A stretch of DNA of 41,360 nt from a phage. Location: the NCBI GenBank assembly GCA_027217645.1, contig GCA_027217645.1_4344.1. One strand, 5' to 3'. Below the pieces are notes generated by a model, which was given only the letters and a program-made list of their open reading frames with translations, ran no database searches and was not told the DNA's origin. The position numbers were made by a program, and so were the translations under genes. Below are positions 2,384-25,998 of the stretch, piece after piece. Every line of letters begins with the position of its first letter. The first letter of the stretch is position 1.

Positions 2384-2413
2384 CTCTGTCTCTCCTCTCG
2401 TTTGTGTAAATGA

Positions 2414-2442
2414 ATAGTAGCCTATTCTATCTTAGTGTGCAA
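2414..2442 (-). promoter_or_regulatory. Sigma70-like promoter, TTGCAC-N17-TACTAT class
   Basis: Seen in sequence: minus-strand -35 TTGCAC (2437-2442), 17 nt spacer, -10 TACTAT (2414-2419); spacer/-10 contains the palindromic box AATAGTAGCCTATT (2413-2426). Confidence 0.5.
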
Positions 2443-2449
2443 GTAAATT

Positions 2450-2623
2450 TTATTGGTGTGTTATAGAGTCGATGAACGCCAGTAACTCCCTTTCCGCTTC
2501 TGCCTCTCTTTCTTCAAGCGACCAGGTAGCGGATTCCTCTGTCGCCGTTGCTAAATCGGTTTTCGCATCAACCATCGTGTCGATTAACGTGATTAGTCGT
2601 TCAGCCTGTTCTTTAGTAATCAT
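2450..2623 (-). CDS. Small hypothetical acidic protein (57 aa), not in the ORF track
   Basis: Hand translation MITKEQAERLITLIDTMVDAKTDL...; AGGAG RBS 9 nt upstream; same strand as all neighbouring genes, unlike the overlapping plus-strand track ORF 2472..2684. Confidence 0.3.
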   Translation of the reverse strand: MITKEQAERLITLIDTMVDAKTDLATATEESATWSLEEREAEAERELLAFIDSITHQ

Positions 2624-2757
2624 TGTTGCATCTCCTGCAATAGTCGCTTCGATTGTTGCGTTTGATGAAAGTGTCGCCTTTTGACGACACTAAGTTAAAG
2701 TTGTACGCTGCTGTGTAGCAGCGTAAGTCACTCAGTAAAATCCCAAACTATTGAACA

Positions 2758-2958
2758 TCACACTTCTGGCGGCTCGGGTAACGGCATCCAGTGCGTCACG
2801 TACTTATCGTAGTGATTCCAGAAAGGCTTTCTCCCGTCATCAGGAACTATGTAATAATCGTGCTGAACTGCGTTATTTAACGTTTCATACACCAGGAACT
2901 CTTTATCCGTATACCCATTACCCGGCAGCATCTCACTACACTTAATCCACTCACCCAT
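2758..2958 (-). CDS. DUF551-like phage protein
   Basis: Track ORF 66 aa; W...LP...WMPLPEPP pattern recalled as characteristic of the DUF551 family; translationally coupled to the upstream small ORF. Confidence 0.55.
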   Translation of the reverse strand: MGEWIKCSEMLPGNGYTDKEFLVYETLNNAVQHDYYIVPDDGRKPFWNHYDKYVTHWMPLPEPPEV

Positions 2959-3106
2959 ACCTCACACCTCTTTCAATCAAGGATTGCACACCAGCTTTCC
3001 ACGCCCGCCACGCGAGACGCGTCTTAACGTTCAGGTACTCTTTCTTTGAACCCTTGTTAACCGGCAGACCCTCGACCACAGCCCACCGTTCAAATGCTTC
3101 TCTCAT
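2951..3106 (-). CDS. Small hypothetical protein (51 aa), not in the ORF track
   Basis: Hand translation MREAFERWAVVEGLPVNKG...; ATGA overlap with the upstream gene stop (3103-3106) and stop overlapping the DUF551 gene start. Confidence 0.3.
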   Translation of the reverse strand: MREAFERWAVVEGLPVNKGSKKEYLNVKTRLAWRAWKAGVQSLIERGVRYG

Positions 3107-3282
3107 ACCAGAACCTCACATTCATCCCGATACACGAACAATAACGACCCTTTGTACTCAATCATAAAACCATAATGGTTGATGCTGAACGCCGGAAAAA
3201 CATCACCTACCGAGATACCGAAATCTATAAGCCTGCGGTCAGTTATACGGATAAGCCTGCGGTCAGTTATACGGATTCGCAT
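3103..3282 (-). CDS. Hypothetical protein containing an exact 8-residue tandem duplication
   Basis: Track ORF 3103..3291 trimmed to the ATG at 3282 (TAATG overlap with upstream stop); protein repeats IRITDRRL twice, encoded by the 24 bp tandem repeat. Confidence 0.4.
   Translation of the reverse strand: MRIRITDRRLIRITDRRLIDFGISVGDVFPAFSINHYGFMIEYKGSLLFVYRDECEVLV
3227..3274. repeat. Perfect 24 bp tandem duplication (2 copies)
   Basis: Seen in sequence: ATAAGCCTGCGGTCAGTTATACGG at 3227-3250 and again at 3251-3274. Confidence 0.9.
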
Positions 3283-3485
3283 TAACGGCAACCTCCCTCA
3301 GCGTCGTCGGCACAAGCATCATGATTCGATGCCGTTCGTATTGCTCGTAAGCTATTTAACATTCGCTCGCTGGTAGATGTAATAACCGTTATACCGTCCG
3401 CCAGATGCACCTCGTAGCGTTCAGCTACGAAATATATTTCCTCGAAATCATGATGTTTCAGTTCTTCAAATAATTCTTCCATCAC
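3282..3485 (-). CDS. Hypothetical acidic protein
   Basis: Track ORF 67 aa; overlaps neighbours at both ends in a chain of coupled small early genes. Confidence 0.45.
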   Translation of the reverse strand: MMEELFEELKHHDFEEIYFVAERYEVHLADGITVITSTSERMLNSLRAIRTASNHDACADDAEGGCR

Positions 3486-3679: not shown

Positions 3680-3713
3680 AACCCTCACTCCTCTGTCTCG
3701 TTTCGATAAGTGA

Positions 3714-3742
3714 ATAGTACCCTATTATGTTGGGGTGTGCAA
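3714..3742 (-). promoter_or_regulatory. Sigma70-like promoter, TTGCAC-N17-TACTAT class, for the leftward early operon
   Basis: Seen in sequence: minus-strand -35 TTGCAC (3737-3742), 17 nt spacer, -10 TACTAT (3714-3719); contains box AATAGTACCCTATT (3713-3726); near-identical to the promoter at 25940-25968. Confidence 0.55.
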
Positions 3743-3961
3743 GAGATTAGTTACGTTGCCGTTGTGATTCTTTAGTTTAATGGGATAGCGAGCGAAACGA
3801 AACGAACGTGGTGCCGAAGGCACCAAGAGTGAGTGAGTGAGCTTGCGGATATAACCTACGGCAAATCAGTAACTTAGATATTTAGGCTGGAATTACAATA
3901 GACTTTGGGCCTCCCAAACGCGCTAGCGAGCCTCACTCCACACGCTACACGTGCTCGTTTC

Positions 3962-4042
3962 GCCTGCCGCGCGCCGCGGTCGCTTGTTCATACTTCACAA
4001 GCTCAGGCTGAGCTTACCATATTTCTTAGTAAAAGTCAATAC
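3962..4042 (+). repeat. Copy A of an ~80 bp dispersed non-coding element (copy B at 34562-34643)
   Basis: Seen in sequence: 38 bp identical core CGCGCCGCGGTCGCTTGTTCATACTTCACAAGCTCAGG (3970-4007 and 34569-34606) with diverged flanks; contains hairpin GCTTGT-N9-ACAAGC. Confidence 0.8.
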
Positions 4043-4086: not shown

Positions 4087-4115
4087 TTGCTTTTACATTC
4101 CCGCTATCCTATACT
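4087..4115 (+). promoter_or_regulatory. Candidate sigma70-like promoter for the rightward operon
   Basis: Seen in sequence: TTGCTT (4087-4092), 17 nt spacer, TATACT (4110-4115), about 30 nt upstream of the ATG at 4147. Confidence 0.4.
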
Positions 4116-4738: not shown

Positions 4739-6996
4739 ATATTGTTTTTGCAACGCTGCGTAACACATTCGATAAAAACCCGGTAGCCCGTGAAATGCCA
4801 CTGGAGCAGTTTGTAGAGTATGTCTGCGATACATCGAAGCGTCTGTCCGTAGACCCGTCATGGACTAAGGAAGAGTACGACGCCGCCAAGATTAAGCAGA
4901 AGGCTATCGCACCGGTTGGCGGTCGCCGTAAAAACGCGATTCTGGAAGACAGTGTGGTTAAGTTCGACTTTGACCATCTCAACCGCACTCAGTACCGCGA
5001 CCTGACGCGCAAATTCAAGAACGCGCCGTTCTTCAACATTCTGCACACAACGGCGTCGCACCAGCACGCGTGTAAAAACGGGGATTACGCATTCCGCGTT
5101 CTGGTTCCGGCTCGCACGCCGTTTAACTCTAACGATGCGTGGATGGTGCAACGTGCTATTTGTGCAGAGTTAGAAATAGACGAAGCATTGCGCGACCACT
5201 GCACAGAAGACGGCAACCGCCTTATCTACCTGCCGCATAAAGAGTCGAAGATAACGGTTACAGAAGGGCGTGTTATCCGTGCCGAGCGGTACATCAAGAA
5301 AGCCGAAGAGATGGGGTTGCGTAAACGTGAAGCTAAGACGCTTGCTGCCGATGAGCACGGGCTTAACGCAGATATAGCGCATTTCTGCGAAGCGGAGCTT
5401 GGCCTTGACGCGTTATCTTCCGGGCGTGGGTATGAAGTGCCATGCCCCAACGAGCATCTGCACACGGGCAAAGGCTCCACCAGCATCATGCTTGATGGTA
5501 AAGAAGTGCGCTTCGTGTGCCAGCATACGAACAACGGCGCTTGTACGGAGCTTAACCGCCGGCAACATTTGGCCCTGCGTATGTGCGGCCTTCCGGACGA
5601 GCTTAATGTAGACAAGCAACCTATCAGTATTAACAGCATTCGCGCGGCTCTTCCTGATTTACCGGACGAAGAGATTGAGGAATTGCACCGCACAGAGAAC
5701 GAGGAGTCTGTAACTTGCACGCTGGAAGACCTTGAAGACGAGCCGGAATTTGAAAAAGAACCTGCTTACTCCGTCGTAGACGGCCTTATGCAGACTAACG
5801 AATCATTCTACATTTGCGCAAAATCGCATACCGGTAAGTCAACATTTAGTATGGCGATTGACGCCGCTATAGCCGCTGAAAAAAGATATGCGTTCGGCGG
5901 GGCAGAGGTCGCAGAAGGGCATGCATTTATTTTCGCGGGTGAAGGTGCGCAGTCATTCGAGCGGCATAAAAAGTCTTTGCAAATCGCCCTCGGTGACAGC
6001 CTTGACCGCTTGCACATTATCGATTGTGTTGCGGATGGGTGTAACTTACTCGATGAGGCGTGGCGTCGCCAGGCGGTGAGAATGATGCGCCGTGTTGCCG
6101 GTGAAGAGAAAATTGTAAAGGTTACGTTTGATACCCTGCAAACTTGCATACCAGGCTTCGACGAGAACGACAACAGATCGATGAAAGAAGCGACGCAGGC
6201 GCTTAACGAAATAGCTTTGACGCTTAACGCCGCGGTAGGCGCTATGGTGCACCCTACGAAAAACATCGACGAAACCGTACCGTCTGAGAACGGTATGATG
6301 CCGAAGGGTGGGAGCGACTTTCACAACTCCATCGATAACGGGATGTTCCTGCATAAACCAGACAACGACAATAACTTAGAGATAAACCTGTATCACATAA
6401 AGAACCGAAACGGAGAACGGCAGAAAGCCAGAGGATTCGTAATACAGAAGATTCAGATAGCGGAGCCACCGGAAAAGAAAGAACCAACCCACAACTTCAT
6501 GGGGCTTCCAGAAGGGTATAGTAGTGATGATGTCCGCGATTTTGATGCAGGAAATCCGCACATCGATGTCTTTGTTAACTTTAACGCCTTCTCTGTCTTC
6601 GTGAAGAAAGTAGAAGGTATGACCGACGAACAGAAGGAAGCCGTTAAAGAAAAGGTAGGCCAGTTCGAGAAACTGGACACCAAAGAGGCTACGGTTATTT
6701 ACGCATTAGGTAAATTGCAGGAGCAGGGCGACGACAAGCGAGGGTTTTCTATGTCAGCTATCGTCAAAGCAGCGAAAGAAGATAGTTACGGTGTACCGAT
6801 TAACGCTAATAATGACCTTCGAAAAAAACTGGAAGAGATGCACGAGGCGGGGGTTATCGTCTCTGGGCTGGATAACAACAACAGGCCTATCCCTAAGCAA
6901 TACCGGTTGCCGTGGGGCATAAACGATAACAAGATTCCGAAGACGATATACGAACCGAATGAACTGTTAACAGTGGCAGAGGAGGATTTAGAATAG
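4735..6996 (+). CDS. DNA primase/helicase-like replication protein (zinc-binding motif plus P-loop ATPase domain)
   Basis: Track ORF 753 aa; Cys/His cluster CPNEHLHTGKG...RFVCQHTNNGAC; Walker A-like AKSHTGKST; domain family not resolved. Confidence 0.65.
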   Translation: MNIVFATLRNTFDKNPVAREMPLEQFVEYVCDTSKRLSVDPSWTKEEYDAAKIKQKAIAPVGGRRKNAILEDSVVKFDFDHLNRTQYRDLTRKFKNAPFFNILHTTASHQHACKNGDYAFRVLVPARTPFNSNDAWMVQRAICAELEIDEALRDHCTEDGNRLIYLPHKESKITVTEGRVIRAERYIKKAEEMGLRKREAKTLAADEHGLNADIAHFCEAELGLDALSSGRGYEVPCPNEHLHTGKGSTSIMLDGKEVRFVCQHTNNGACTELNRRQHLALRMCGLPDELNVDKQPISINSIRAALPDLPDEEIEELHRTENEESVTCTLEDLEDEPEFEKEPAYSVVDGLMQTNESFYICAKSHTGKSTFSMAIDAAIAAEKRYAFGGAEVAEGHAFIFAGEGAQSFERHKKSLQIALGDSLDRLHIIDCVADGCNLLDEAWRRQAVRMMRRVAGEEKIVKVTFDTLQTCIPGFDENDNRSMKEATQALNEIALTLNAAVGAMVHPTKNIDETVPSENGMMPKGGSDFHNSIDNGMFLHKPDNDNNLEINLYHIKNRNGERQKARGFVIQKIQIAEPPEKKEPTHNFMGLPEGYSSDDVRDFDAGNPHIDVFVNFNAFSVFVKKVEGMTDEQKEAVKEKVGQFEKLDTKEATVIYALGKLQEQGDDKRGFSMSAIVKAAKEDSYGVPINANNDLRKKLEEMHEAGVIVSGLDNNNRPIPKQYRLPWGINDNKIPKTIYEPNELLTVAEEDLE

Positions 6997-7024
6997 GCAA
7001 AAAGAAAGGGGCGTTAAGCCCCTT
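6996..7024 (-). terminator. Rho-independent terminator for the XRE regulator gene
   Basis: Seen in sequence: AAGGGGC/GCCCCTT stem (7006-7012, 7018-7024) followed on the minus strand by UCUUUUUG; the hairpin overlaps the regulator stop codon. Confidence 0.55.
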
Positions 7025-7229
7025 CACCGAACACCAGCCACTTGGCGTCTACCTCTAGCACTTCCGCCAGTTTAAACAGCGTTGCTGGGCGGACGTACCG
7101 CGTTACCCCGAGTGCAAGCTGGTTAATCGCGCCCTGGGAAACACCGGACAGGACAGCCAGACGGCGTTGGGAAATGCCGAGTTCTTTACGGCGCTGTTCT
7201 ACACGGATGCCTAGTTCAGATGGTTGCAT
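7014..7229 (-). CDS. XRE-family (Cro/CI-type) helix-turn-helix transcriptional regulator
   Basis: Track ORF 71 aa; LGISQRRLAVLSGVSQGAINQL is a textbook XRE HTH; AAGGAG RBS; transcribed divergently from the promoter region carrying two palindromic boxes. Confidence 0.75.
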   Translation of the reverse strand: MQPSELGIRVEQRRKELGISQRRLAVLSGVSQGAINQLALGVTRYVRPATLFKLAEVLEVDAKWLVFGEGA

Positions 7230-7293
7230 GTCAATTACTCCTTAGCCAGTTGATATGTGAATAGTACCATATTAATTATTTTAGAAAAGCCCC

Positions 7294-7322
7294 TTGACAA
7301 GTGAATAGTTCGCTATTATAGT
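7294..7322 (+). promoter_or_regulatory. Strong sigma70-like promoter, TTGACA-N17-TATAGT class, with embedded palindromic box
   Basis: Seen in sequence: TTGACA (7294-7299), 17 nt spacer, TATAGT (7317-7322); box AATAGTTCGCTATT (7304-7317); second imperfect box AATAGTACCATATT at 7260-7273; drives the gene at 7354. Confidence 0.6.
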
Positions 7323-7353
7323 TAGCCCATACCAAACGAGAGGAGAGAAACAA

Positions 7354-7875
7354 ATGTTAGAGAAATTCTTGGTATTACTGGAACGTTTCGTAGTCGCCCA
7401 CGAACTGATTGCTGCAAACAGTGTGAAACAACCGACTAGCAAATCTGTAGGTGAATTGACTGTTGACGTCGCGGTAACTGGGGTAGAGACAGTTAAAAAG
7501 GAACTGGCTAAAGCACTTGAAGAAGTCGAGAAGGCGAAAGAAATCCCGGTTGAAGGTGAAGACATCGTCGACACTAAACCAGCAGAAGAAGAGAAGCCGA
7601 AGCGCAAGCCGCGTAAGGACAAAGTAGAGGAACCAACGCCAGAGCCGGAAGAAGAGAAAGAAGAAGTCGATTACCAGTCTCTGCGCGACCAGATTCAGGC
7701 TATCGACGATGCGATTAACGAAGGCCCAAGCGATGCCGCGTGCGACGATTCTGACGAACTGCTGGAAGAGTTTACCGGTAAGAAGATGAAGATTGCAGCG
7801 ATTAAAGACGAAGACCTGGCTGAGTATCTGGAGCGCCTGACAGCAATCAAGAACAAGTATTTCGAAGAAGAATAA
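7354..7875 (+). CDS. Highly acidic early protein of unknown function
   Basis: Track ORF 173 aa; strong RBS GAGGAGAG; long Glu/Asp-rich stretches with one basic patch (KPKRKPRKDK); first gene after a consensus-like promoter. Confidence 0.6.
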   Translation: MLEKFLVLLERFVVAHELIAANSVKQPTSKSVGELTVDVAVTGVETVKKELAKALEEVEKAKEIPVEGEDIVDTKPAEEEKPKRKPRKDKVEEPTPEPEEEKEEVDYQSLRDQIQAIDDAINEGPSDAACDDSDELLEEFTGKKMKIAAIKDEDLAEYLERLTAIKNKYFEEE

Positions 7876-7880
7876 CTATC

Positions 7881-7903
7881 CCGCGGCCTTCGGGCCGCTT
7901 TAA
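7881..7903 (+). terminator. Candidate weak terminator/attenuator hairpin
   Basis: Seen in sequence: GCGGCC-TTCG-GGCCGC stem-loop followed by only a short T run. Confidence 0.35.
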
Positions 7904-7918
7904 CTGAGGGTCGGAATT

Positions 7919-8191
7919 ATGATTTACCAACTCTACCGCGCCGTAGACAGGAGGGATAGCACAGAGGCGCTATGGCTGTTACGTGCGCCGTCTGGCTCGC
8001 ACCAGATGGAAGATATGGCGTACTTAGGCAAAGTGCCACGGCCTAAAGACATAGGCCGCCACGTGTCACATATTAAGCGCACGACTTTCGCCAAACCGGA
8101 CTTTTACGTCTTCGAGTCGATGTACGGGTGGGCCATGCATTGCGACCACAAGACACGGCATTTAATCGACCAGTGGGAGAGCAGGGTATGA
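7919..8191 (+). CDS. Hypothetical protein
   Basis: Track ORF 90 aa; stop overlaps the next gene start as ATGA. Confidence 0.45.
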   Translation: MIYQLYRAVDRRDSTEALWLLRAPSGSHQMEDMAYLGKVPRPKDIGRHVSHIKRTTFAKPDFYVFESMYGWAMHCDHKTRHLIDQWESRV

Positions 8192-8535
8192 CTTATAAAT
8201 GGTGGCTTAATCTGCGTAGCGGCGACAACGTTTACACGGTCGGCGACCGCAGAAAGAACAGCGGTGTAGCTGTTGTACTACAAAACGGCAAAAAGTACAT
8301 CCACATTGCACATGAAGCCCGGGCGCTCAGAGTGAATAAATCGTCTGGCAGGCTTGATGATTACCCGAAAACATTAATATACAAAAGTGAAAAGCATCAC
8401 ATGGAAGCTGTTGATGCAAGACGCCAGTTCGCAGTAATGCTGCGACAGTTAAGTGACTTACATCGCGATGATTCTTTCATCCCCACAGAAGAACAGCTAC
8501 AGGCATTAAACTTGTATTTGGAGAGTTTACGATGA
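8188..8535 (+). CDS. Hypothetical protein
   Basis: Track ORF 8128..8535 with start moved to the ATG at 8188, which is coupled to the upstream stop; stop overlaps the nuclease start. Confidence 0.45.
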   Translation: MTYKWWLNLRSGDNVYTVGDRRKNSGVAVVLQNGKKYIHIAHEARALRVNKSSGRLDDYPKTLIYKSEKHHMEAVDARRQFAVMLRQLSDLHRDDSFIPTEEQLQALNLYLESLR

Positions 8536-9782
8536 TTCTTAAAGAACGCGGCGGCAATAATGATGTGCACGCCTTACTGTCGCCGTCAGGGGCTAAAAAG
8601 TGGCTAAGCTGCGCCGCATCGCTGGCCTGTGAAAAAGATATTCCTAACACATCTGGTAAAGCCGCCGTTACAGGGACCGCGTGTCACACCATAGCCGAGG
8701 TCCATTTAAATCAGTACATCAAAGGCACTGCGTTGCCGTTAGAGCGTGAAGTCGGTGCTTACGTGCTGGATGAAGGTAAAGGCCAGATTAAGGCGCTAAT
8801 CAGCCCGATGAAAGGCGCGGTACTGATTACGGCTGACATGATTGAGCAGGTGCGCAAGTACACCGACTACTGCAAAGCGATTATAGATGTAGCGACTTAC
8901 GCTAAGCTGGAAATGCGCGTCAATCTTACTGAGGTGTTGCACCCAGGCTACGAAGGCGTTGAAACGTTCGGAACTGCTGACCTTGTTGCTGTACAGGAAC
9001 TGGCAAACACCGACGAGCACATGCTCATTATTGGTGACCTGAAAACAGGACGGCATCGCGTCGAAGCGAAAGAAAACAAGCAGCTTATGCTTTACGCTCT
9101 CGGTGTTTATCGCCGACTCAAGAGACGTTATAACATCACAGTAGTGCGCCTGGTCATCTTCCAGCCGTACGCGGGGGGTGCGTCGGAGTGGGATATCTCG
9201 GTCGAAGGTCTGGAACTGTTCGCTAAGTTCGCACAGAAACGGGCACTGTTAGCGCTTGATGCTTATTTCCGTGGAAAGAAGAACCTGAAAGCGTCGGACT
9301 TTAAACCGTCGGTCGATGGTTGCCAGTGGTGCCGGTTCTCTGAACAGTGTGCCGCGCGTACAAAGACGGTTAATTCTGTACTGGCGGAAGAACTTGAAGA
9401 CGACTTTGTGCTGGAACTGACGACGGAGCAACTCGTAGTTGAGTATGAGAAGTTGCCGCTGTTGCGCCAGCACATCGACAAGGTTGAGAAAGCGATGACC
9501 GCCGCATTGCATTCCGGTAAGAAAGTGCCAGGGTACAAACTGGTAGAAGGCCGCCAGGGTAATCGTGCGTGGAAAGATGCCGATGCGATTGAAGTGTCAC
9601 ACGGCGACATTCTCAAAAAAGAGGTATTGATGACACCTACGGAGGCAGCAAAAGTTCTTTCGGCGGATGAGATGGCAGCGCTTGAGCCGTTTATTACCCG
9701 TAAGCCAGGCGCACCATGTGTCGCAACGGCAGACGACAAACGTCCTGAGTGGAATCAGGTTAGTGAAGAAGATTCGGAATAA
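8532..9782 (+). CDS. PD-(D/E)XK nuclease, Cas4/RecB-like (DUF2800-type), with C-terminal Cys cluster
   Basis: Track ORF 416 aa; GTADLVAV...IGDLKTGRH...KQLMLYALG resembles the PD-(D/E)XK core; CQWCRFSEQC suggests an Fe-S or zinc site; precedes the SSB-like and polymerase genes as in the known DUF2800-DUF2815-PolA module. Confidence 0.7.
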   Translation: MILKERGGNNDVHALLSPSGAKKWLSCAASLACEKDIPNTSGKAAVTGTACHTIAEVHLNQYIKGTALPLEREVGAYVLDEGKGQIKALISPMKGAVLITADMIEQVRKYTDYCKAIIDVATYAKLEMRVNLTEVLHPGYEGVETFGTADLVAVQELANTDEHMLIIGDLKTGRHRVEAKENKQLMLYALGVYRRLKRRYNITVVRLVIFQPYAGGASEWDISVEGLELFAKFAQKRALLALDAYFRGKKNLKASDFKPSVDGCQWCRFSEQCAARTKTVNSVLAEELEDDFVLELTTEQLVVEYEKLPLLRQHIDKVEKAMTAALHSGKKVPGYKLVEGRQGNRAWKDADAIEVSHGDILKKEVLMTPTEAAKVLSADEMAALEPFITRKPGAPCVATADDKRPEWNQVSEEDSE

Positions 9783-9786: not shown

Positions 9787-9815
9787 TTGACACCTGAATA
9801 GTTAGCTATTATAGT
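9787..9815 (+). promoter_or_regulatory. Sigma70-like promoter, TTGACA-N17-TATAGT class, with palindromic box
   Basis: Seen in sequence: TTGACA (9787-9792), 17 nt spacer, TATAGT (9810-9815); box AATAGTTAGCTATT (9797-9810); upstream of the SSB-like gene. Confidence 0.55.
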
Positions 9816-9868
9816 TCTAATCACTGGCCGGGCAGTTCCCGGAGTAAACTGAAAAGCGAGAAATCACG

Positions 9869-12942: not shown

Positions 12943-13091
12943 CAATGTTTGTATTTTGGACGATAGTAACCATGCTCGCGCTGTTACTCGGTGCGGGAAT
13001 AGCCGCGATGTTCTGTTACGGCCTGTTCTTTAAGTTTGTCGGTGTCGCCGTTCTAGGAGGGGCTTTCCTTACTTGGGATCTACGCTCATGA
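12939..13091 (+). CDS. Micro-protein (50 aa), hydrophobic membrane peptide
   Basis: Hand translation MTMFVFWTIVTMLALLLGAGIAAMFCYGLFFKFVGVAVLGGAFLTWDLRS; stop TGA overlaps the VRR-NUC ATG at 13088. Confidence 0.35.
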   Translation: MTMFVFWTIVTMLALLLGAGIAAMFCYGLFFKFVGVAVLGGAFLTWDLRS

Positions 13092-13372
13092 CTAAAGAGG
13101 GCCGCGTACAGAAATACGCAAAAGACCGATTCGAGGCCCTTGGCGGCCTCGTTCGCAAACTCTCCTACGAGGGGCGTTCCGGCGCCCCAGACCTGCTGGT
13201 AATTCTCCCCGGCGGCATAGTCTGGTTCGTCGAGGTTAAGAAAGACGAGAACACGAAGCCAGACCCGCACCAGCTACGGGAACATGAGCGGATGCGTAAA
13301 CGTGGTGCGAATGTTTTTGTCGTTGGTTCGTTTAAACAGGTTGACGACCTAATAGCTAGCTATTATAGTTAG
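13088..13372 (+). CDS. VRR-NUC domain nuclease (PD-(D/E)XK superfamily)
   Basis: Track ORF 13073..13372, start placed at the ATG at 13088 coupled to the upstream micro-ORF; GAPDLLVILPGGIVWFVEVKK fits the VRR-NUC catalytic core. Confidence 0.7.
   Translation: MTKEGRVQKYAKDRFEALGGLVRKLSYEGRSGAPDLLVILPGGIVWFVEVKKDENTKPDPHQLREHERMRKRGANVFVVGSFKQVDDLIASYYS
13341..13369 (+). promoter_or_regulatory. Sigma70-like promoter, TTGACG-N17-TATAGT, embedded in the 3' end of the VRR-NUC gene
   Basis: Seen in sequence: TTGACG (13341-13346), 17 nt spacer, TATAGT (13364-13369); contains the perfect palindrome AATAGCTAGCTATT (13351-13364), which also encodes the last residues of VRR-NUC. Confidence 0.5.
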
Positions 13373-13402
13373 TCCTACACCAACAATATAAGGAATTGAG
13401 AA

Positions 13403-13594
13403 ATGAAACACGAATATGACCGCAAACCAGCACGTGACATCGTACCGGGTGACATGATTTTCAACGTTAAGACACGTCAACCTGTTGCCGTTGATACGGT
13501 GTTCGTCGAGTCGAACGGTAAACTGGTTATCGAAGATGTAACGGGTAACGTTACGGCGTTCGGGCGTAAAGAGCTGGTGCTGGTGGCGAAATGA
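13403..13594 (+). CDS. Hypothetical protein
   Basis: Track ORF 63 aa; AAGGA RBS; stop overlaps the methyltransferase ATG as ATGA. Confidence 0.45.
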   Translation: MKHEYDRKPARDIVPGDMIFNVKTRQPVAVDTVFVESNGKLVIEDVTGNVTAFGRKELVLVAK

Positions 13595-14415
13595 ACTATT
13601 ACAATGAATGGGATAAAGGCGCAGCCGCGTGGCTGCGTGAGTTGATAAAACAGGGTCACATACCTTTTGGAGTTGTAGATGAAAGAAGCATTACCGAAGT
13701 TAAGCCAGAAGACCTTGACGGGTTCACCCAGTGTCATTTTTTCGCGGGTATCGGCGGCTGGCCTCTCGCGCTCAGACTTGCGGGAGTTTCGGAGGATACG
13801 CCTCTCTGGACGGGAAGCCCGCCTTGCCAACCGTTTAGCACGGCAGGAAAACAACTCGGACAGTTCGACCCGAGACACCTCGCGCCGGTCTTCCTCGACC
13901 TCATCAGCGAGTGCCGCCCTCCAGTCATCTTTGGGGAGCAGGTTGCGGCAGCAATTGCAAAATCGTGGATGTGCGATTTACAAGCTCACCTGGAAGGAGA
14001 AGACTACGCCGTCGGGTTTGCTGTACTCCCAGCTTGTAGCGTCGGCGCACCGCACAAAAGAGAACGACTCTTCTTTGGCGCGCACGAACTGGCCTACACC
14101 GACAGCGAACGACTTCAGAGGGAGCGGAGAGACAGTGATTCGCACGGACGGGAGGGACAGAACATTCGACAGGCTGGACTACTCAACAGAGCAGGGATTG
14201 AAAGCGAGTCAACCAACCCGCACCACGGCTTCTGGTCAGATGCTGACTGGCTCGGATGCCGTGATGGAAAGTTCCGGCCGGTTGAACCCGGCGCATTCCC
14301 GCTGGCTAATGGGATACCCGCAAGAGTGGGACGATTGCGCGGTTACGGCAATGCCATCGTCCCGCAAGTAGCCGCCGAATTTATAAAGGCGTTTATGGGG
14401 GCCGTAAATGAGTAA
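13591..14415 (+). CDS. DNA (cytosine-5)-methyltransferase
   Basis: Track ORF 274 aa; motif I FAGIGG, motif IV PCQPFS, degenerate motif VI GEQV, motif VIII-like HKRERLFF, C-terminal motif [14 protein letters not shown]; stop overlaps the helicase start. The +1 frame of the same DNA also carries methyltransferase-like motifs (see findings). Confidence 0.7.
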
Positions 14416-15832
14416 GTTTCAAAGGCGCGAATACCAGAAGCTCATGACCTCGTTCATGTTGCAGCACCATCGCTGTAATATTTGGGCGAGCATGGGCGCC
14501 GGGAAGACTGGCAGCGTCCTGTGGGCTTTAAACCGCCTGTTCCGCAACGGGCAACTTACGGACGACGACCGCGTGTTAATTCTCGCCCCGTTGCGCGTTG
14601 CGTCCGGTACGTGGCCCGCAGAACAAGAGAAATGGCAATTCCCTTGTCTGCGTGTCATCGATGCAACCGGTTCTGAGAAGCGCCGCATCGCGGCACTGGA
14701 GTCTGATGCTAACGTGGTGTGCACTAACTACGAAGTTATTGAGTGGCTGATTGACTACTACGGCAAAGACGACTGGCCTTTTACGGTTATCGTTGCTGAT
14801 GAGAGCACGAAGCTGAAATCATTCCGCAGCCGTTCAGGTGGGAGCAAGCGGGCTAAGGCGCTAAGCAAAGTGGCGTTCGGTAAGGTTAAGCGCTTCATTA
14901 ACCTTACAGGCACACCATCGCCTAACGGCCTCAAGGACCTGTGGGGTCAGAACTGGTTTATCGACGCCGGCGAGCGCCTCGGTTCATCGTACACAGCATT
15001 CACCGACCGCTGGTTTAACTCGGTACAGAAAGGTAAGTCAGCGATGGCGCGTGAGTATCATGCGCGCCCGGGTGCGGATAATGAGATTCATCAGAAGATG
15101 AAAGACATCAGTCTCACGATTGACGCCGCCGAGTGGTTCGGATGTGAAGCGCCGATTATTGTACCGGTTGAAATCGACCTGCCGAAGAAGGCGCGCCAGG
15201 CGTACATTGATATGGAGGAGAAGCTATTCGCGGAACTGGAGAGCGGAGAAGTTGAAGCGGCTAATGCGGCAGCGAAGACGTCGAAGTGCCTACAGATTGC
15301 ATCCGGTGCCGTGTATGTGTCAGGGCCAGACGGTGAAGCAACGAAAGACTGGGAGAAAGTGCACGACACGAAACTGGATGCGCTCGAGTCCATTGTTGAG
15401 GAGTTACAGGGGGCGCCGTTACTGGTCGCCTATCAGTTCAAGCACGAACTGGAGCGCATCCTCAAGCGCTTCCCGCAGGCGCAGGCTTTTGCAAAAGGCG
15501 CGAAGGGCAATAAGCAGATGGAAGCGTGGAACCGTGGCGAAATCGAAATCCTATGCGTGCACCCCGCGTCAGCCGGCCATGGTTTGAATTTACAGGACGG
15601 CGGACATCATCTGGCGTTTATTTCGCAAGGCTGGAACCTTGAGCACTATTTGCAGGTTGTCGAGCGTATAGGCCCGGTGCGCCAGAAGCAGGCGGGCCAC
15701 GAGCGACCAGTGTTCCTCTATCACATCGTTGCTAAAGACACGCTGGACGAGGTTGTTGCCTCGCGTACTGACGAGAAGAAATCGGTCCAGGAAGAGTTGC
15801 TTAATTACATGAAGAGACGAGGTAAGAAATGA
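14408..15832 (+). CDS. SNF2-family (DEAD/DEAH-like) helicase
   Basis: Track ORF 474 aa; Walker A MGAGKTG, DEAH-like VIVADESTKL, helicase C-terminal region HPASAGHGLNLQ. Confidence 0.8.
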   Translation: MSKFQRREYQKLMTSFMLQHHRCNIWASMGAGKTGSVLWALNRLFRNGQLTDDDRVLILAPLRVASGTWPAEQEKWQFPCLRVIDATGSEKRRIAALESDANVVCTNYEVIEWLIDYYGKDDWPFTVIVADESTKLKSFRSRSGGSKRAKALSKVAFGKVKRFINLTGTPSPNGLKDLWGQNWFIDAGERLGSSYTAFTDRWFNSVQKGKSAMAREYHARPGADNEIHQKMKDISLTIDAAEWFGCEAPIIVPVEIDLPKKARQAYIDMEEKLFAELESGEVEAANAAAKTSKCLQIASGAVYVSGPDGEATKDWEKVHDTKLDALESIVEELQGAPLLVAYQFKHELERILKRFPQAQAFAKGAKGNKQMEAWNRGEIEILCVHPASAGHGLNLQDGGHHLAFISQGWNLEHYLQVVERIGPVRQKQAGHERPVFLYHIVAKDTLDEVVASRTDEKKSVQEELLNYMKRRGKK

Positions 15833-17956: not shown

Positions 17957-20512
17957 TTAATTAAAACCATTGCTGAATCCGTCGGAGAAACCGCTGCCGT
18001 ATGGCGCGACGCCGTCGTATTTATAGAATCCGTCGTCATAGTTGTAGCCAGTAATCTTGACCGTGCGGTCGTCGCCAGGGTCGATTGAAGAAACAACTAT
18101 CTTCTGGGCATTATGCCTTGCTTCGTTGCCGAATGAAAACTCAGTTTTTAGTGCGCTATTCCCCGTGTAGATTGCCTCCTCCGGCGCGGAGAGCATAATC
18201 ACTTCGCGGTCGTGTCTTCCTTTGATGACAGAGATACTCTGCACTGAGCCATCGCGCTTCTTAAGAATGATGGAGTGGTCGTCGCCAGGAGTAAACGTAA
18301 CAGGCTGGGATAGCGTAAGTGTAAGCCCGTTAACGGCAACAACATAGCCGTCCTGTGGCGCGATACGTGAACCTTTAACTACGCTGATTACCCCACCGGG
18401 CGTAGCGAGCGCACCTTCTTCCGTAGCTTCGAACTCTACAACAACTTTACTTAACGCATTGCGCTGATAGCGACGCCACGCCAGCCAATATGCCTGTTGG
18501 TAGTTACGCACGCCCTTTGATTCGTATTCCTCCGTATTTGCACCCAGTTCTTCCGGGATGTAAATCGTTTCCTGTACGTTAGTATCCGGGTCGATGTATG
18601 AGAACGACAGGCTATCGTAGGTTGTCGAATCGTTGAACGTGCGGGTCCATTTCTCGGTACCGGTAGTTTTGCTGCGGTGGGTGAACACCATTTCAGGCCC
18701 CGCGACAGGACGGTCGAATCGCAGCATAATATCCGCACCTTTACGGTACGCAGTACAGAACACGGCTTCAGCTATGGCCTGAACAATGTCCTGCATCGTC
18801 GTGTCGTAGTCGTCGAACGTGTAGCAGAATTGCCCGGCTAATTCGCTGCCAAAATAAGATTCAATCTCTTCCTGCACAGCAAGTAACTTGTCCATGTTTG
18901 CCGTTGTCAGCTCCAGATTACCAACCGCCGGGTCACGCGCCAGTCTGATTAGCGACTGCACCGCCTGTGTATTAGGCGTCATTACTGTATCGAATACCCC
19001 ATTGCCGAGGTATTTGTAACACATCTCGGTCGCAATCATGCGCAGTTCTGGGTTGTCGATACTGGCGGCACGCGGCGTCTGTTTACGTGCGCAATGCACG
19101 GTAGTTCGGTTGCCGTAGTGTGGGGTTGTGTCCAGCGACTGCCCGTACAGGTTGATGAAGGTTATCTCGTCGCTTACTGTACCGTTGTAGTCCTTATCAA
19201 AATTCGTTATACGGCGCATACGGGCGCGGAAACGCGATGCAGTAGGCAATTGCCCGTAGATAGACGTACCGACGTAACCCGTGCTATTACCGGTAATTGT
19301 AGCCTGTACTGTGTAAATATCGCTCAATGGGTTGCGCCGAGAGTCAATCATCTGGTACTGGAGTTCTACCGTTACGCTGGTGCGATTATAGCCACCGTCG
19401 TATTTGTAGAGGCCGTTCTGCCCGGCAACGTTAGCAAGTACTCGGTCAACTTCTCCGCGCACCATGTAATACCAGTCGGTAAGGGATACGTCATAGGTGT
19501 TGCTCGGGCCCATAAACGTATCTGAACGCTCTGTTAACGTGTACGTCTGCCCGCTGGTCAACGCCGCCCAGTTAGACGCACCGTTTACCGCTAATCTTAC
19601 TTCGAAGTCGTCAACGTATAAAACCGCAAACGAGCCGTTCAGGTTAGTGACATCAGCAACGTCAAAGTTGCTCAGCACCGCGACATCACCAACACTAAGA
19701 AACTCAGAAAAAGCAGAGACGCCTGACGGATCATAGATGTAGCCAGTGTTTGAAATACGTTTAGCTGTGCCGTCGGCGCTTGGGTTAGCTCCGATGTCGT
19801 TTGGCGCTTTCAGCACAATACCGTCAACGTCGTCGTTGGAGTATGTCACATAGAGTTTCTGGTCAATGACGTCGCCGATTTGTAGTTGCGGAGATGCGGT
19901 GTTGTTCGGTGACGTATACGGCGCATATACGGCAACAGATGAACCTGTGATGTCGCTTATCAGGGTGTCGCCTTCCGTTACGCCATCAGCCTCAATATGC
20001 AGATGCCCACGCCCCGCGTCATAATACGAATACTCCAGCAAAGCACCCGTGGAGTTGAACGCTTTATACGTCTGCATCAGGTCATTAGGGATTGTCTGCA
20101 CAGTCCCGCAGATGTCATAGGAGCGCTCGTAAGGGCGTGGTTTGTTTGAGCGGTCTGCGAGGCTGTTATTTGGTGATGTTGTCTGGTTGTTAGTCGCCGT
20201 GTAGTTGGCGTTGGCGGCCGTGTTCAGGCCAAACAACTTGGCGATTGGCTTAAGGATAAAACCAAACACCTTACTAACCGCACCGAGCGCCCCGCTACCC
20301 GCACCCTCAATAATGTGGTACACAGCGTCTTCATCTTTAAGCGCGTCGAAGTCGTCCGTTACGTCTGTATCATCGCCAATCTCACCGAGGTAGACGCGCA
20401 CCGGCACGCCGTCAGGGATACGACTAACGACAAACTCCATCGGCATCCCGACGTGTTTTGTACGGCCGAAAGCGCCATCAGCGTTTCGCGTGTAGTGCAG
20501 AATTATCGCCAA
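17957..20512 (-). CDS. Tail tip / host specificity protein (lambda J-like)
   Basis: Track ORF 851 aa; size and position after the NlpC/P60-like K-like gene and before the fibre; TTG start per track. Confidence 0.5.
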   Translation of the reverse strand: MAIILHYTRNADGAFGRTKHVGMPMEFVVSRIPDGVPVRVYLGEIGDDTDVTDDFDALKDEDAVYHIIEGAGSGALGAVSKVFGFILKPIAKLFGLNTAANANYTATNNQTTSPNNSLADRSNKPRPYERSYDICGTVQTIPNDLMQTYKAFNSTGALLEYSYYDAGRGHLHIEADGVTEGDTLISDITGSSVAVYAPYTSPNNTASPQLQIGDVIDQKLYVTYSNDDVDGIVLKAPNDIGANPSADGTAKRISNTGYIYDPSGVSAFSEFLSVGDVAVLSNFDVADVTNLNGSFAVLYVDDFEVRLAVNGASNWAALTSGQTYTLTERSDTFMGPSNTYDVSLTDWYYMVRGEVDRVLANVAGQNGLYKYDGGYNRTSVTVELQYQMIDSRRNPLSDIYTVQATITGNSTGYVGTSIYGQLPTASRFRARMRRITNFDKDYNGTVSDEITFINLYGQSLDTTPHYGNRTTVHCARKQTPRAASIDNPELRMIATEMCYKYLGNGVFDTVMTPNTQAVQSLIRLARDPAVGNLELTTANMDKLLAVQEEIESYFGSELAGQFCYTFDDYDTTMQDIVQAIAEAVFCTAYRKGADIMLRFDRPVAGPEMVFTHRSKTTGTEKWTRTFNDSTTYDSLSFSYIDPDTNVQETIYIPEELGANTEEYESKGVRNYQQAYWLAWRRYQRNALSKVVVEFEATEEGALATPGGVISVVKGSRIAPQDGYVVAVNGLTLTLSQPVTFTPGDDHSIILKKRDGSVQSISVIKGRHDREVIMLSAPEEAIYTGNSALKTEFSFGNEARHNAQKIVVSSIDPGDDRTVKITGYNYDDGFYKYDGVAPYGSGFSDGFSNGFN

Positions 20513-22784: not shown

Positions 22785-25057
22785 TATTTAAACCCCGGCG
22801 CATTTCTTGTGGCTTTGCGGGCCTTGCTAATCTTGCTGTTGCTATTCTGCAAAGAGGCAGCCACCTGCTCCTCGATGATGATTCGCAAACGGCCTTCGTC
22901 ATCTTGCTCAGTGGATACGTTGCCGATTTGAGAACTCGTGTTGTTTACGATAGTAACATTAGACGGGCCGGAAGAAGACCCGTTTTGCCCCATAATTTCT
23001 TTCATCTGCTGTGCTGTGCGAACACGAGATGCGCCAGCCGGCATAATAACTTCTGGTTTACCGCGTTCAGCGATAGTAGAAGCCTGCCCGGCGGATAACT
23101 GCCCACCCTGTTCACGTGCGGACCGGATAGCGGAAATCTGCGCCATACCTGCACCAACGGCAGCGGCAGCGGCTACAGGGGCTAGGAAGGGGCCAACAAC
23201 GGGGATAGCAGCCGTTGACTTGTACGCTTCAATGGCTGCGGTGTATGTGGCGATAGTGGCCTGCACAATAGCGAATGCCTTGTACGCGCCAGAAGCCTCA
23301 CCCAACGCAGACCCGATGTTTGAGGCCATGTTACCAAAGGCCGTTGCCGTTGCATCGGCACGTTTGGTTGCGTATTGCTCGTTGATGGCGTTAAGAGCGG
23401 CCTGATACTGCTTCTCGCTAATCAGCCCCTGTTCACGGTATTTATCAGCTACCGCCAGTTTCTGCTGTTCCTGGATGTCGAGAAGCTCAAGCTCAGTAGC
23501 GTTCTGACCCATAATCTGAGCCATGAAGTCGTCACCTTTCTGCTGCTTTTCCTGGGCTTCTTTCTGGCGTTTATCCAGTTCATCTTGCCGTTTTTGCCCG
23601 GCTTCGAGGACGATAGCTGTTTTAGCCTGTTCGTATTCTTTCAGCGACAGCGCGCCCTGGCTGTAGAACTCTTTTGCCTTAGCCAGTTTCTGCTGTTCCT
23701 GCGCGTCGATAGCCTTTAACTCATCGTTGTTCTGGCGAGCCAAAGTGTCGAGGTAATCCTGCGCCTGATTCCGCAATTGTTCTGCTTTCTTGGCGGCGGC
23801 TTTTGCCGCTTTATCGTCGGTGTTTCCTGCCCCGCCAGTTCCGCCCTTTTTATTAACAAGACTGGCTAAGTCAATTTCTTGCTTCTTGCGCTCGTCGTAC
23901 TGCTTGCGCTGTTCCTCAATTTCTTTCTTACGCTGCTTAGACCTGTTGGTAATGGCCTGTGATTCTGCCTCTGCGCGTTTTATGCTAGCGGCGTACGCGG
24001 CGTCGGCCTCTGCGGTCAGGTTTTTAAATGTTAGCGCCGCCGTTTTGCTCGGGTCAAACACGTCGGCAAGGGTCTGCCCTAACGCTACAGCGTAATCGTC
24101 GATGCGCTGGAACCACGCAATAACCTCGTGAAATGTCTGCTGGATGTCCGGCAACCACTCACGGATGGCATCCGGTATAGTCCCCAGCGAGTCAGACATA
24201 TCAACGGATTTGTCCTCGGTATCGAATGCCAGGTCATTCAAGGCGTCGGAAATAAACTTGAATGACTCATTGAACAGCGCCACCCAATCCTGGAGCGTGG
24301 CGGCTATCTCATTAGACGCGATGGCGTCGGTAAGCGCCGTGATAGCGTCTTCCGCTGTGGCCGCTTGCTCACCTACGGCGTCGCCAAAACCAGACTGCGC
24401 CACCGCAAGAACAAGACCGTCGAAGGAGTCCGCCAGGCTAGATAACTGACCATCTAAGGTCTTCGAGCGCGTCTCCATCGCTCCGGCGAAATCAGTGTTA
24501 CCGATATTTAGCAGGTATTTCTGAATCTCTTCGGAGTTCTTTTTAACCGTGGTCGTTACGCCACGGAACGTAAACGAAACTGTATCCGCCTGTTGGGAAG
24601 ACTTGATACCGAACTCTTTTAAGCGCTCAAATTCAAATGTACTGGCGTCGGCAACTGCCTCAATCATTTGGTTAAGGTCTTTGCCCATAGCTGCGGCGGT
24701 GTTGCCGTAGGATATTAACGCCTCTTTGCTGGGGTTAAGACCTAGCGCCACGAGCTTGGTAAACCCCTCTACCGCCTGATTGAGGCCATACGGAGTTTCT
24801 TTTGCGAACTGTTGCAGGACGCTGAATGCCTTAGCAGCGTTCTCGGCGCTCCCGGTCATTGTGATGAGGCCGGAGTTCAGCTTATCGAAGTTGCGCTGGG
24901 AGTCCACCAGCGCACTGAACACCTGTTTGGCAGTTTCCAGACTGACAACGGCAGCGGCGGCGGCCCCCGCGGCTTTGGTAAGCCCGTTCAGTTGTGATGT
25001 GGTTTTATCGACGCCGGTCGATGATACTCGTACGATCAAGCTAGCGGTATCAGCCAT
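22784..25057 (-). CDS. Tail tape measure protein
   Basis: Track ORF 22784..25072 with start at the ATG at 25057; long Ala/Gln/Glu/Lys-rich coiled-coil protein downstream of the G/T chaperone pair. Confidence 0.85.
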   Translation of the reverse strand: MADTASLIVRVSSTGVDKTTSQLNGLTKAAGAAAAAVVSLETAKQVFSALVDSQRNFDKLNSGLITMTGSAENAAKAFSVLQQFAKETPYGLNQAVEGFTKLVALGLNPSKEALISYGNTAAAMGKDLNQMIEAVADASTFEFERLKEFGIKSSQQADTVSFTFRGVTTTVKKNSEEIQKYLLNIGNTDFAGAMETRSKTLDGQLSSLADSFDGLVLAVAQSGFGDAVGEQAATAEDAITALTDAIASNEIAATLQDWVALFNESFKFISDALNDLAFDTEDKSVDMSDSLGTIPDAIREWLPDIQQTFHEVIAWFQRIDDYAVALGQTLADVFDPSKTAALTFKNLTAEADAAYAASIKRAEAESQAITNRSKQRKKEIEEQRKQYDERKKQEIDLASLVNKKGGTGGAGNTDDKAAKAAAKKAEQLRNQAQDYLDTLARQNNDELKAIDAQEQQKLAKAKEFYSQGALSLKEYEQAKTAIVLEAGQKRQDELDKRQKEAQEKQQKGDDFMAQIMGQNATELELLDIQEQQKLAVADKYREQGLISEKQYQAALNAINEQYATKRADATATAFGNMASNIGSALGEASGAYKAFAIVQATIATYTAAIEAYKSTAAIPVVGPFLAPVAAAAAVGAGMAQISAIRSAREQGGQLSAGQASTIAERGKPEVIMPAGASRVRTAQQMKEIMGQNGSSSGPSNVTIVNNTSSQIGNVSTEQDDEGRLRIIIEEQVAASLQNSNSKISKARKATRNAPGFK

Positions 25058-25382
25058 GATTTCTACCTTCAAAGATTGCTTCTAAGCCCATGATAATGTC
25101 TATCTCGAACAGGCTAAGCTGTTTTTGCGTAACATCGAGATAGGCTTTCAGGTCTTGCCACGTAACGGATTCTCTTGCGAACAATACTACAGCGTCCTCG
25201 CGCACGTGTCGCGTAAACTTAATGTCGCAGTACGTCTCGAAGGTGGATATAAAAAGGGGCGGGCATTCTGGCCCACCCCGTCGCGCTGCACGTTTTTTCT
25301 TATCGATTACACCCATCGCGATAAGCGCCTGTTCGTGTCCGTCGGCTATAGAATCAAACTCTCTGATTTTATGCTTATCCAC
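25050..25382 (-). CDS. Tail assembly chaperone T-like extension, probably made as a G-T fusion by -1 frameshift
   Basis: Track ORF 110 aa in the -1 frame relative to the G-like ORF; this frame is open from the TGA at about 25437 through the end of G; stop overlaps the tape measure start. Confidence 0.4.
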   Translation of the reverse strand: MDKHKIREFDSIADGHEQALIAMGVIDKKKRAARRGGPECPPLFISTFETYCDIKFTRHVREDAVVLFARESVTWQDLKAYLDVTQKQLSLFEIDIIMGLEAIFEGRNHG

Positions 25383-25414
25383 AAACTCATAGGTGGCGAA
25401 CCTGTACAGCGCGT

Positions 25415-25831
25415 CTACTTTTCCTGTAATGCTTTGCGCTCAGCGTTATGGAACGCTGCTACCTGTGTGCCTAATGCCTTGAACTGGTCCAGCAATTTGT
25501 TAAATGCTTCTTTAGAGAAAGGCTCATCAAAGCTCCAGCCGTTTACGACTTCTGCCGCGAGTTGCCGGTTGAGGCCTTCCGCCAGTTCGTTAATAGCCAG
25601 GTTATATTCAGTATAGTCGCCGGATTCTTTGGCGGCTTTTTCCAGTTCTTCGAAACGCGCCAACCCGCGACGGTACGCAATAATGAAAGCACGCCCCGCT
25701 TTAACGGCGACATCCGCATCGGGACTTACAACGTTAAGCCATTCACCGGAGTCTTCGCCGTTTGGCAGCAGAATGGGCATCTTCTTGCCTACCAGTGCTT
25801 TCTCTTCGAAATAAAAATCAGAAAGTTTCAT
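25415..25831 (-). CDS. Tail assembly chaperone (lambda G-like)
   Basis: Track ORF 138 aa; AAGGA RBS; position between the major tail region and tape measure; followed by a -1 frame ORF. Confidence 0.55.
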   Translation of the reverse strand: MKLSDFYFEEKALVGKKMPILLPNGEDSGEWLNVVSPDADVAVKAGRAFIIAYRRGLARFEELEKAAKESGDYTEYNLAINELAEGLNRQLAAEVVNGWSFDEPFSKEAFNKLLDQFKALGTQVAAFHNAERKALQEK

Positions 25832-25939
25832 TCTTTAATCCTTTGGTTAAGAGGTTACAGGTTAACGATAAATGCGCCAGACGGGAACCACCCGCTTTTC
25901 GTGTGCGACACTAGGCGCAAACTTATTCTATCACATTAC

Positions 25940-25968
25940 TTGCACACCCCAATATAATAGGGTACTAT
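25940..25968 (+). promoter_or_regulatory. Sigma70-like promoter, TTGCAC-N17-TACTAT class, driving the plus-strand cassette
   Basis: Seen in sequence: TTGCAC (25940-25945), 17 nt spacer, TACTAT (25963-25968); box AATAGGGTACTATT (25956-25969); near-identical to the minus-strand promoter at 3714-3742. Confidence 0.55.
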
Positions 25969-25998
25969 TCACTTACACCAACAATGAAGGGGTTTAAA

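Follow-up and report, generated by a model that had tools for sequence, protein, structure and literature searches.

Two phages, fBC-Eco01 and VB_EcoS-Golestan, have been reported to carry seven copies each of a short repeated element, listed in the supplementary tables of the corresponding papers (PMC9825357/PMC7203180). In the fBC-Eco01 paper these are seven 'phage RNAP promoters' detected by PHIRE, with consensus tgAATAGTa-ccTATTat-T (for example, TGAATAGTACCCTATTATAT), and are handled as asymmetric 20-mers served by a phage RNA polymerase (RNAP); the text of that paper makes no mention of dyad symmetry or of a repressor. The VB_EcoS-Golestan paper gives seven PHIRE 'conserved promoter sequences' (e.g. 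TAATAGGGTACTATTCATTA), which it calls conserved and phage-specific, and no more. The same element was analysed here, at orthologous positions, in a 41,360-bp stretch of phage DNA (NCBI GenBank assembly GCA_027217645.1, contig GCA_027217645.1_4344.1), referred to below as the window. The window belongs to a Kagunavirus (Guernseyvirinae), a virulent K1-type siphophage of E. coli, and vB_EcoS_fTaEco01 (fTaEco01) is ∼94% identical to it across 88% of its first 25 kb. The element is a 14-bp dyad, AATAG-N4-CTATT (hereafter, the box), located in promoters. The motif is therefore already published as a repeated 'phage promoter', while its dyad nature and likely operator role are undiscussed in those papers; its label as a phage-polymerase promoter is wrong. 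We propose that the box is, very probably, the site of a sequence-specific dimeric protein, and that a 71-aa XRE-family protein encoded beside two of the copies is, on balance, the likeliest to bind it.

The exact box occurs six times in the window (at 2413, 3713, 7304, 9797, 13351 and 25956), the number expected from dinucleotide-preserving shuffles being 0.04; none of 100 shuffles reached six copies. With up to one mismatch allowed there were 11 copies versus 0.9 expected, including those at 7260 and 41330. When all combinations of 5-mer, gap and 5-mer were searched on both strands, with no palindrome assumed, no non-terminator motif of the window ranked above the box and its one-base shifts. 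Phage SETP3, a Jerseyvirus, contains five exact boxes (0.03 expected), and there too the box was the top de novo gapped motif. An earlier, sequence-only reading of the window had listed seven copies, all with correct coordinates and sequences, and had proposed a motif search in this and related genomes as a check; that search found the enrichment just described and, as detailed below, half-sites conserved in 50 genomes. The observation of the box is thus confirmed, far beyond chance.

Every exact copy lies on a sigma-70-like promoter, 14–58 nt 5′ of a start codon. The 30–60 nt previously given for the distance to the gene holds for most copies (29–58 nt from the end of the box to the start codon), but the box at 25956 may lie at only 14 nt, if the first ATG is used, or at 29 nt otherwise. 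Two classes of promoter can be distinguished. Class 1 comprises three plus-strand promoters, TTGACA-N17-TATAGT at 7294–7322 (box 7304–7317) and at 9787–9815 (box 9797–9810), and TTGACG-N17-TATAGT at 13341–13369 (box 13351–13364, fully palindromic), as the sequence-only reading had described them. In all three the box begins 4 nt past the −35 hexamer and fills the spacer, its last T being the first base of the −10. They scored 11, 11 and 10 of 12, respectively, in a sigma-70 consensus scan, and rank with the best sigma-70 matches of the first 20 kb. The promoter at 7294–7322, divergent from the XRE gene, heads a segment (7354–9782) encoding proteins without assignment plus a DUF2800/PD-(D/E)XK nuclease. 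That at 9787–9815 heads the genes for a Gp2.5-like single-stranded DNA-binding protein (SSB), DNA polymerase A and a VRR-NUC protein, while that at 13341–13369 heads 13403–15832, which includes a C5 methylase and an SNF2 helicase. The box of the latter is not intergenic: it lies in the last codons of the VRR-NUC open reading frame (ORF; 13073–13372).

Class 2 promoters have the form TTGCAC-N10-AATAGG(G/C)TACTATT-CA, in which the −10, TACTAT, falls within the box, 17 nt from TTGCAC. They are found on the minus strand at 2413–2426 (AATAGTAGCCTATT; −35 at 2437–2442, −10 at 2414–2419) and 3713–3726 (AATAGTACCCTATT; −35 at 3737–3742, −10 at 3714–3719), and on the plus strand at 25940–25969 (box 25956–25969). 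The first heads a leftward operon of small genes, which begins at 2383 and leads towards the lysis genes (holin, endolysin); the second, a leftward small-gene operon starting at ∼3688; the third, a cassette encoding Imm, a metallophosphoesterase, a polynucleotide kinase-like protein and a dNMP kinase. The earlier TTGCAC-N17-TACTAT assignment stands for these three copies and falls for the one at 7260–7273 (minus strand), a one-mismatch box (AATAGTACCATATT) that covers the TACTAT −10 (7261–7266) of the promoter of the XRE gene but has CTTTTC where TTGCAC would be. Class 2 promoters match the consensus poorly (7 of 12), and 9 nt 5′ of their −10 lies another −10-like hexamer (TATAAT, CATAAT or TAGAAT); at 25930–25958 the scan reports ATCACA-N17-TATAAT. 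TTGCAC is nevertheless kept 17 nt from TACTAT across genera, while nothing is kept 17 nt 5′ of the alternative hexamer, which makes TTGCAC…TACTAT the better assignment.

Degenerate boxes overlap the −35 of two promoters located 5′ of the structural and lysis operons. At 41310–41343 (minus strand), TTGACT-N17-TATATT has its −35 (41333–41338) inside a one-mismatch box (41330–41343) that reads ACTAG-TTGA-CTATT on the minus strand; this promoter, 5′ of a small-gene, terminase and structural operon, is kept in both genera. The related variant noted previously at 41310–41338 is a real sigma-70-like promoter, and its score (10 of 12) is similar to those of class 1 (10–11 of 12), the hexamers being 17 nt apart in all of them. 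At 34610–34643 (minus strand), a promoter-like TTGACT-N17-TAAGCT (34638–34610) has its −35 inside a one-mismatch box at 34630–34643; it is the weakest member of the set and its membership is uncertain. Taken as a whole, the boxed promoters head essentially all non-structural operons (replication, nucleotide metabolism, accessory functions and XRE), for which the 'early programme' of the sequence-only reading was too narrow a term. A candidate promoter of the operon encoding a helix-turn-helix (HTH) protein and the helicase-primase (TTGCTT-N17-TATACT, 4087–4115) has no box, this being the only non-structural operon apparently beyond the box regulon.

Relatives were collected from IMG/VR by means of an alignment of XRE proteins, which yielded 80 loci, none longer than 20 kb. 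Each of the 36 loci whose XRE is of the Kagunavirus type, and each of the 11 of the Jerseyvirus type, had between two and six exact boxes within 10 kb of the XRE gene; none or one was present where the XRE was of another type. When all 74-mers with a box were clustered across 50 genomes of Kagunavirus and Jerseyvirus, three promoter clusters proved common to both genera, covering 33–34 Kagunavirus and 11–12 Jerseyvirus genomes. In these three clusters the half-site columns showed 0.3–1.6% variation, while the central 4 bp showed 20–29% (9–10 different tetramers per promoter) and the 10 nt on either side of the box 9.5–28%; the linker between the box and the −35 varied freely. The conserved columns include the left half-site of class 1 promoters which, judging from the hexamer positions, falls in the spacer between about −25 and −21, a stretch in which sigma-70 is not known to read bases. 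In the promoter at 41338–41310, the left half-site, which lies 5′ of the −35, was kept in 26 Kagunavirus and 11 Jerseyvirus genomes. When the polymerase-operon promoter was located by a leader anchor alone, a box was found in each of the 46 genomes possessing that anchor (41 with no mismatch, five with one); since no motif search was involved, ascertainment bias is ruled out for this promoter. The enrichment and the half-site conservation together indicate that the box is a genuine, selected, dyad-symmetric element within promoters.

The position of the box relative to the hexamers is not fixed, as had been supposed: two registers are present in the window and more in its relatives. In the first (class 1) the box ends on the first T of the −10, and in the second (class 2) it contains the −10. 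In a third, seen at SETP3 15245, in Pantoea phage AH01 and the related locus L077, and in TS6-type phages, the box lies 7 nt past the −35 and the −10 begins at box position 11; in a fourth (41330) a degenerate box covers the −35. For the cassette next to the tail-chaperone gene, the promoter follows class 2 in Kagunavirus, but in SETP3 it has the 7-nt register, with the box unchanged. An element that keeps its sequence yet slides over the core promoter fits a binding site or operator module better than a polymerase recognition element.

Several boxed promoters also have in common a leader and ribosome-binding site (RBS) module (CAAACGAGAGGAGAG; ACACCAAACGAGAGGAGAG or ACACCAACAATATAAGGA), present at 2384–2412, 3689–3712, 7318–7353 and 13365–13402; what is repeated is thus a whole promoter-leader cassette (∼60–70 bp) rather than the box alone. 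The leader at 9816–9868, 5′ of the gene for the Gp2.5-like SSB, holds CACTGGCCGGGCAG..CCCGG, which is kept in the Kagunavirus, Jerseyvirus, TS6 and L053 groups. A hairpin predicted there is short and not unusually stable; the leader is possibly a translational operator. The fold of the polymerase-operon leader was no better than that of shuffled sequence. The box was also considered as a known RNA element and rejected, there being no Rfam match in the window and the boxes lying 5′ of any start inferred from hexamer position.

The XRE protein (71 aa; 7014–7229, minus strand) is the candidate box-binding repressor. It matches Pfam HTH_3 (E = 2.9e-12), and its best PDB sequence matches are 434 Cro (E = 1.6e-6) and the 434 repressor. 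Its AlphaFold model (pLDDT 79) has five helices, and the best Foldseek matches in the PDB were again the 434 repressor and Cro (1pra, 2cro), with TM 0.74–0.81 and 34–40% identity. Homologues in lambdoid phages, 45% identical, occupy the cro position between cI and cII and adjoin ACAAACAAGTTTGT and ACAAATAACCTTGT, 14-bp ACAA-N6-TTGT dyads of the 434 type, which argues that proteins of this family recognize 14-bp dyads built like the box. The recognition helix reads SQGAINQ in Kagunavirus, SQSLITH in Jerseyvirus, TQGGIGH in AH01 and L077, TQSAISH in TS6 and KQQTIQQ in the lambdoid homologues. Its first residue is Gln in all lineages, and AATAG, AATAC and AWTAN all have A as their outermost base; in the 434 system, the first recognition-helix Gln pairs with the outer adenine. 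In four lineages a dyad of the lineage's own type, usually with one or two mismatches, lies on the −10 of the XRE gene, and a second dyad on the divergent promoter, which is the layout expected for autoregulation. In the window these are the boxes at 7260 and 7304, which lie 44 bp from each other in the region that separates XRE from the divergent operon; the former is a candidate for a weaker, autoregulatory operator. The sequence-only reading had pointed to the adjacent XRE protein, a reasonable choice given its HTH_3 domain, its resemblance to 434 Cro, the two flanking boxes on divergent promoters and the altered box that accompanies an altered helix in AH01.

The dyad varies between lineages. 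One-mismatch dyad counts over whole genomes proved too noisy in GC-rich relatives to be informative. Perfect palindromes were counted per genome as AWTAN-N4-NTAWT. The window and fTaEco01 each had six, and SETP3 five, all of them AATAG, while AH01 had five AATAC and no AATAG; none were found in TS6, VLCpiS11a or the lambdoid phage RothD. Kagunavirus and Jerseyvirus have AATAG only. In L077, AATAC-N4-GTATT was present in four copies (0.22 expected), with promoter context both there and in AH01. TS6-type phages had 10 matches to the looser AWTAN-N4-NTAWT (∼2 expected) and seven to TATTA-N6-TAATA (1.0 expected). The change from G to C in AH01, matched by C to G in the other half, would be expected if a homodimer's operator had changed specificity. 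Two hybrid boxes (AATAC-N4-CTATT) occur in AH01, at 3357 and 36212, with one half-site of each specificity class; the perfect boxes of that phage are all AATAC/GTATT. VLCpiS11a (L005, a Klebsiella phage of the Guernseyvirinae) has promoters that share the word ATGTTGGTTGCAAT, with a palindromic TTGCAA −35 (1881–2028, 4743–4800, 18998–19040, 28837–28880 and 34790–34840), and a 12-bp palindrome, ATACTATAGTAT, 5′ of its XRE gene. TAAGA-N4-TCTTA, considered as the operator of the L053–L055 loci, was ruled out, its sites lying in apparent coding sequence with no promoter context.

These observations can be assembled into a model in which the box-binding protein is XRE, acting as a repressor that occludes promoters; the sequence comparisons and the predicted fold make this somewhat more probable than the alternatives taken together. 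From the same two sources we infer that XRE is the binder, that its binding represses, and how this would be timed. The host sigma-70 RNAP would transcribe the whole genome. XRE would accumulate from its own weak promoter and its dimer would then bind the 14-bp dyads, each monomer reading one AATAG half-site and the central 4 bp remaining unread. Because every dyad lies in the spacer, −10 or −35 of a core promoter, RNAP would be excluded on binding, which would damp the replication promoters, with their near-consensus hexamers, as well as those of the small genes and of the accessory cassette; at higher concentration, the imperfect box on the XRE promoter would provide negative autoregulation. 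A broader proposal, which we regard as speculative, casts a single Cro-like protein without a lysogeny partner as master timer in a virulent phage whose only RNAP is the host's. The order in which promoters are shut off would follow from operators graded in quality and position: perfect ones in the spacer or −10 for the replication and accessory genes, an imperfect one at the gene of the protein itself, and degenerate ones covering the −35 for the structural and lysis genes. The operator code would have diversified within the Guernseyvirinae (AATAG, AATAC, AWTAN) much as lambdoid immunity types have.

Some results weigh against this reading. Binding, repression and transcription starts are all predictions, made from sequence and modelled fold. 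The XRE proteins of Kagunavirus and Jerseyvirus are 49–51% identical and differ at four of six recognition-helix positions (QGAINQ versus QSLITH), yet their box is identical, so covariation of helix and operator is imperfect and suggestive only; relatives at 74–93% identity all have an identical helix and therefore carry no covariation information. The orthologous sites of the TS6 and L053 groups are only loosely palindromic, and VLCpiS11a-type phages keep an XRE homologue with no such dyad (one degenerate match, 1.0 expected). The one published RNA-seq study of a Kagunavirus, vB_Eco_K1B4, sorts genes into time classes from coarse time points, with supplements that hold host tables only, and its early helix-turn-helix gene could not be mapped to XRE. 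A literature search on phage MB78, Jersey-like phages and Jerseyvirus repressors gave nothing relevant. The evidence for a dimeric site by itself names no protein, and the boxes might be operators of another one, either encoded by the phage (the MerR/excisionase-like HTH protein 5′ of the helicase-primase gene, a NinH-like protein or a small unannotated one) or supplied by the host. The box shared despite divergent helices, the XRE without a box in VLCpiS11a, and the presence in fTaEco01 of other small DNA-binding proteins (MerR/excisionase-like HTH, NinH-like) all leave room for this. We nevertheless consider it unlikely, since no other protein here has a classical dimeric Cro/CI-type fold, in several lineages the XRE gene has a box on either of two divergent promoters beside it, and the switch from AATAG to AATAC coincides with a distinct XRE helix. 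A host factor would, moreover, leave the lineage-specific variants among phages of related enterobacterial hosts unexplained. No E. coli regulator is known to have the box as its consensus, and none of the ARG, Fur, OxyR, TrpR and CRP-type consensuses appears to fit it in both spacing and half-site.

It is also conceivable that there is no dedicated regulator, the dyad being a by-product of opposed −10-like elements in interdigitated bidirectional promoters, spread by duplication of the promoter-leader cassette. The half-sites do overlap −10-like sequence (CTATTAT, TACTATT), so promoter function alone explains part of the conservation of the right half. The extended Jerseyvirus box, TATAATAG-N4-CTATTATA, presents a −10-like hexamer on each strand; at SETP3 15245, between divergent genes, a −35-like hexamer stands on either side of the box at a distance of 7 nt; 25956 may carry a leftward TTGGTG-N16-TATTAT promoter as well; and the leader/RBS module common to boxed promoters suggests cassette duplication. 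Such an origin may apply to some copies. As a general explanation it seems to us less likely still, since the boxes at 9797 and 13351 lie inside unidirectional operons with no opposite −35, yet their left half-site is invariant in two genera while the neighbouring spacer varies. Shared ancestry alone would not fix the half-sites while the central 4 bp run through so many variants at each promoter, and nothing in −10 function demands the symmetric switch of AH01. The published label, finally, implies a phage-specific promoter class, used by a phage RNAP or by a host polymerase that some phage factor redirects, a possibility that the sequence-only reading had also raised. PHIRE flags the same 20-mers as phage promoters in fBC-Eco01 and VB_EcoS-Golestan, and class 2 hexamers are poor sigma-70 matches; PHIRE output is, however, silent on the polymerase because the program only finds repeated 20-mers. 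No RNAP domain was detected in the scanned window ORFs of at least 376 aa, which had another assignment or none (the large ones being a helicase-primase, DNA polymerase A, a tail protein, a tape measure protein, a tailspike, an SNF2 helicase, a nuclease and a portal-like protein), and there is no RNAP gene in the fully annotated fTaEco01. Class 1 boxes, moreover, sit between near-consensus TTGACA and TATAGT at 17 nt, and the element is dyad-symmetric and found in several registers, while promoters of single-subunit polymerases are asymmetric and fixed. This alternative fails on the missing polymerase gene and the near-consensus sigma-70 hexamers, and we give it hardly any weight.

Other features were noted around the degenerate boxes. 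Directly adjoining the box at 34630 is an everted, perfect 16-bp palindrome, AACTATTC|GAATAGTT (34637–34652), in which both box half-sites stand tail-to-tail. Where the portal-like gene is followed by another head gene, a one-mismatch box at 36258–36271 (AATAGCATACTATA) stands in the interval and adjoins a terminator hairpin (36276–36291); this box is also PHIRE-flagged in phage Golestan and has no convincing −35. A non-coding element of ∼190 nt is present in two copies on the minus strand (3860–4039 and 34450–34638), one in each of the genome's two largest non-coding gaps. Both copies begin with TTGACT-N17-TAAGCT (4039–4011 and 34638–34610), followed by a near-identical stretch of 55 nt (CCTGAGCTTGTGAAGTATGAACAAGCGACCGCGGCGCG..GGCAGG) and then by a more loosely similar part (72% overall). 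The element had no Rfam match and folded no better than its shuffled versions; a small RNA, a long leader and an origin-related repeat are all conceivable.

If true, the proposed scheme would offer a simple, testable model of how transcription is ordered in a small virulent siphophage with neither a polymerase nor a sigma factor of its own. Consistent promoter and operator annotation could be given to hundreds of Kagunavirus and Jerseyvirus genome records, from phages widely isolated for therapeutic and biocontrol purposes. Kagunaviruses are presented in the BASEL paper as attractive synthetic-biology models. A defined operator-repressor pair, plus a natural orthogonal variant (AATAC, from Pantoea phage AH01), would give portable and tunable parts. 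There is no conceptual novelty in the proposal, since Cro-type occlusion is textbook knowledge, and the finding alone settles no open question.

Among known systems, the closest is that of phage 434. Like the XRE protein, 434 Cro is a 71-residue chain (1zug) with a five-helix HTH_3 fold; like the box, the 434 operators (ACAA-N6-TTGT) are 14-bp dyads with conserved outer half-sites and a free centre. Both kinds of operator, the box as judged from sequence, overlap core elements of divergent promoters adjacent to the gene for the regulator. The differences lie in the half-site (AATAG), in the recognition helix (SQGAINQ versus KQQSIQL) and in the organization of the locus: there is no OR1–3 array, with only two sites by XRE, and no cI partner, integrase or lysogeny module, neither cI nor an integrase or excision module having been found in the window or in fTaEco01. 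Instead, single putative operators are placed over about nine promoters of a virulent genome, in several registers. The C proteins of restriction-modification systems are likewise small XRE-family dimers that act on palindromic boxes at their own promoters; C.AhdI and C.BclI are among the fold matches of XRE, and one boxed promoter heads a DNA methyltransferase gene. This likeness is weaker than that to 434 Cro; there is no restriction endonuclease partner, and the boxes extend beyond the promoter of the regulator. Compared with the promoters of T7/SP6-type phage polymerases, the box is palindromic, lies between or on sigma-70 hexamers and varies in register. Unlike the MotA-type middle promoters of T4, in which the −35 is replaced, class 1 promoters keep TTGACA and carry the box 3′ of it.

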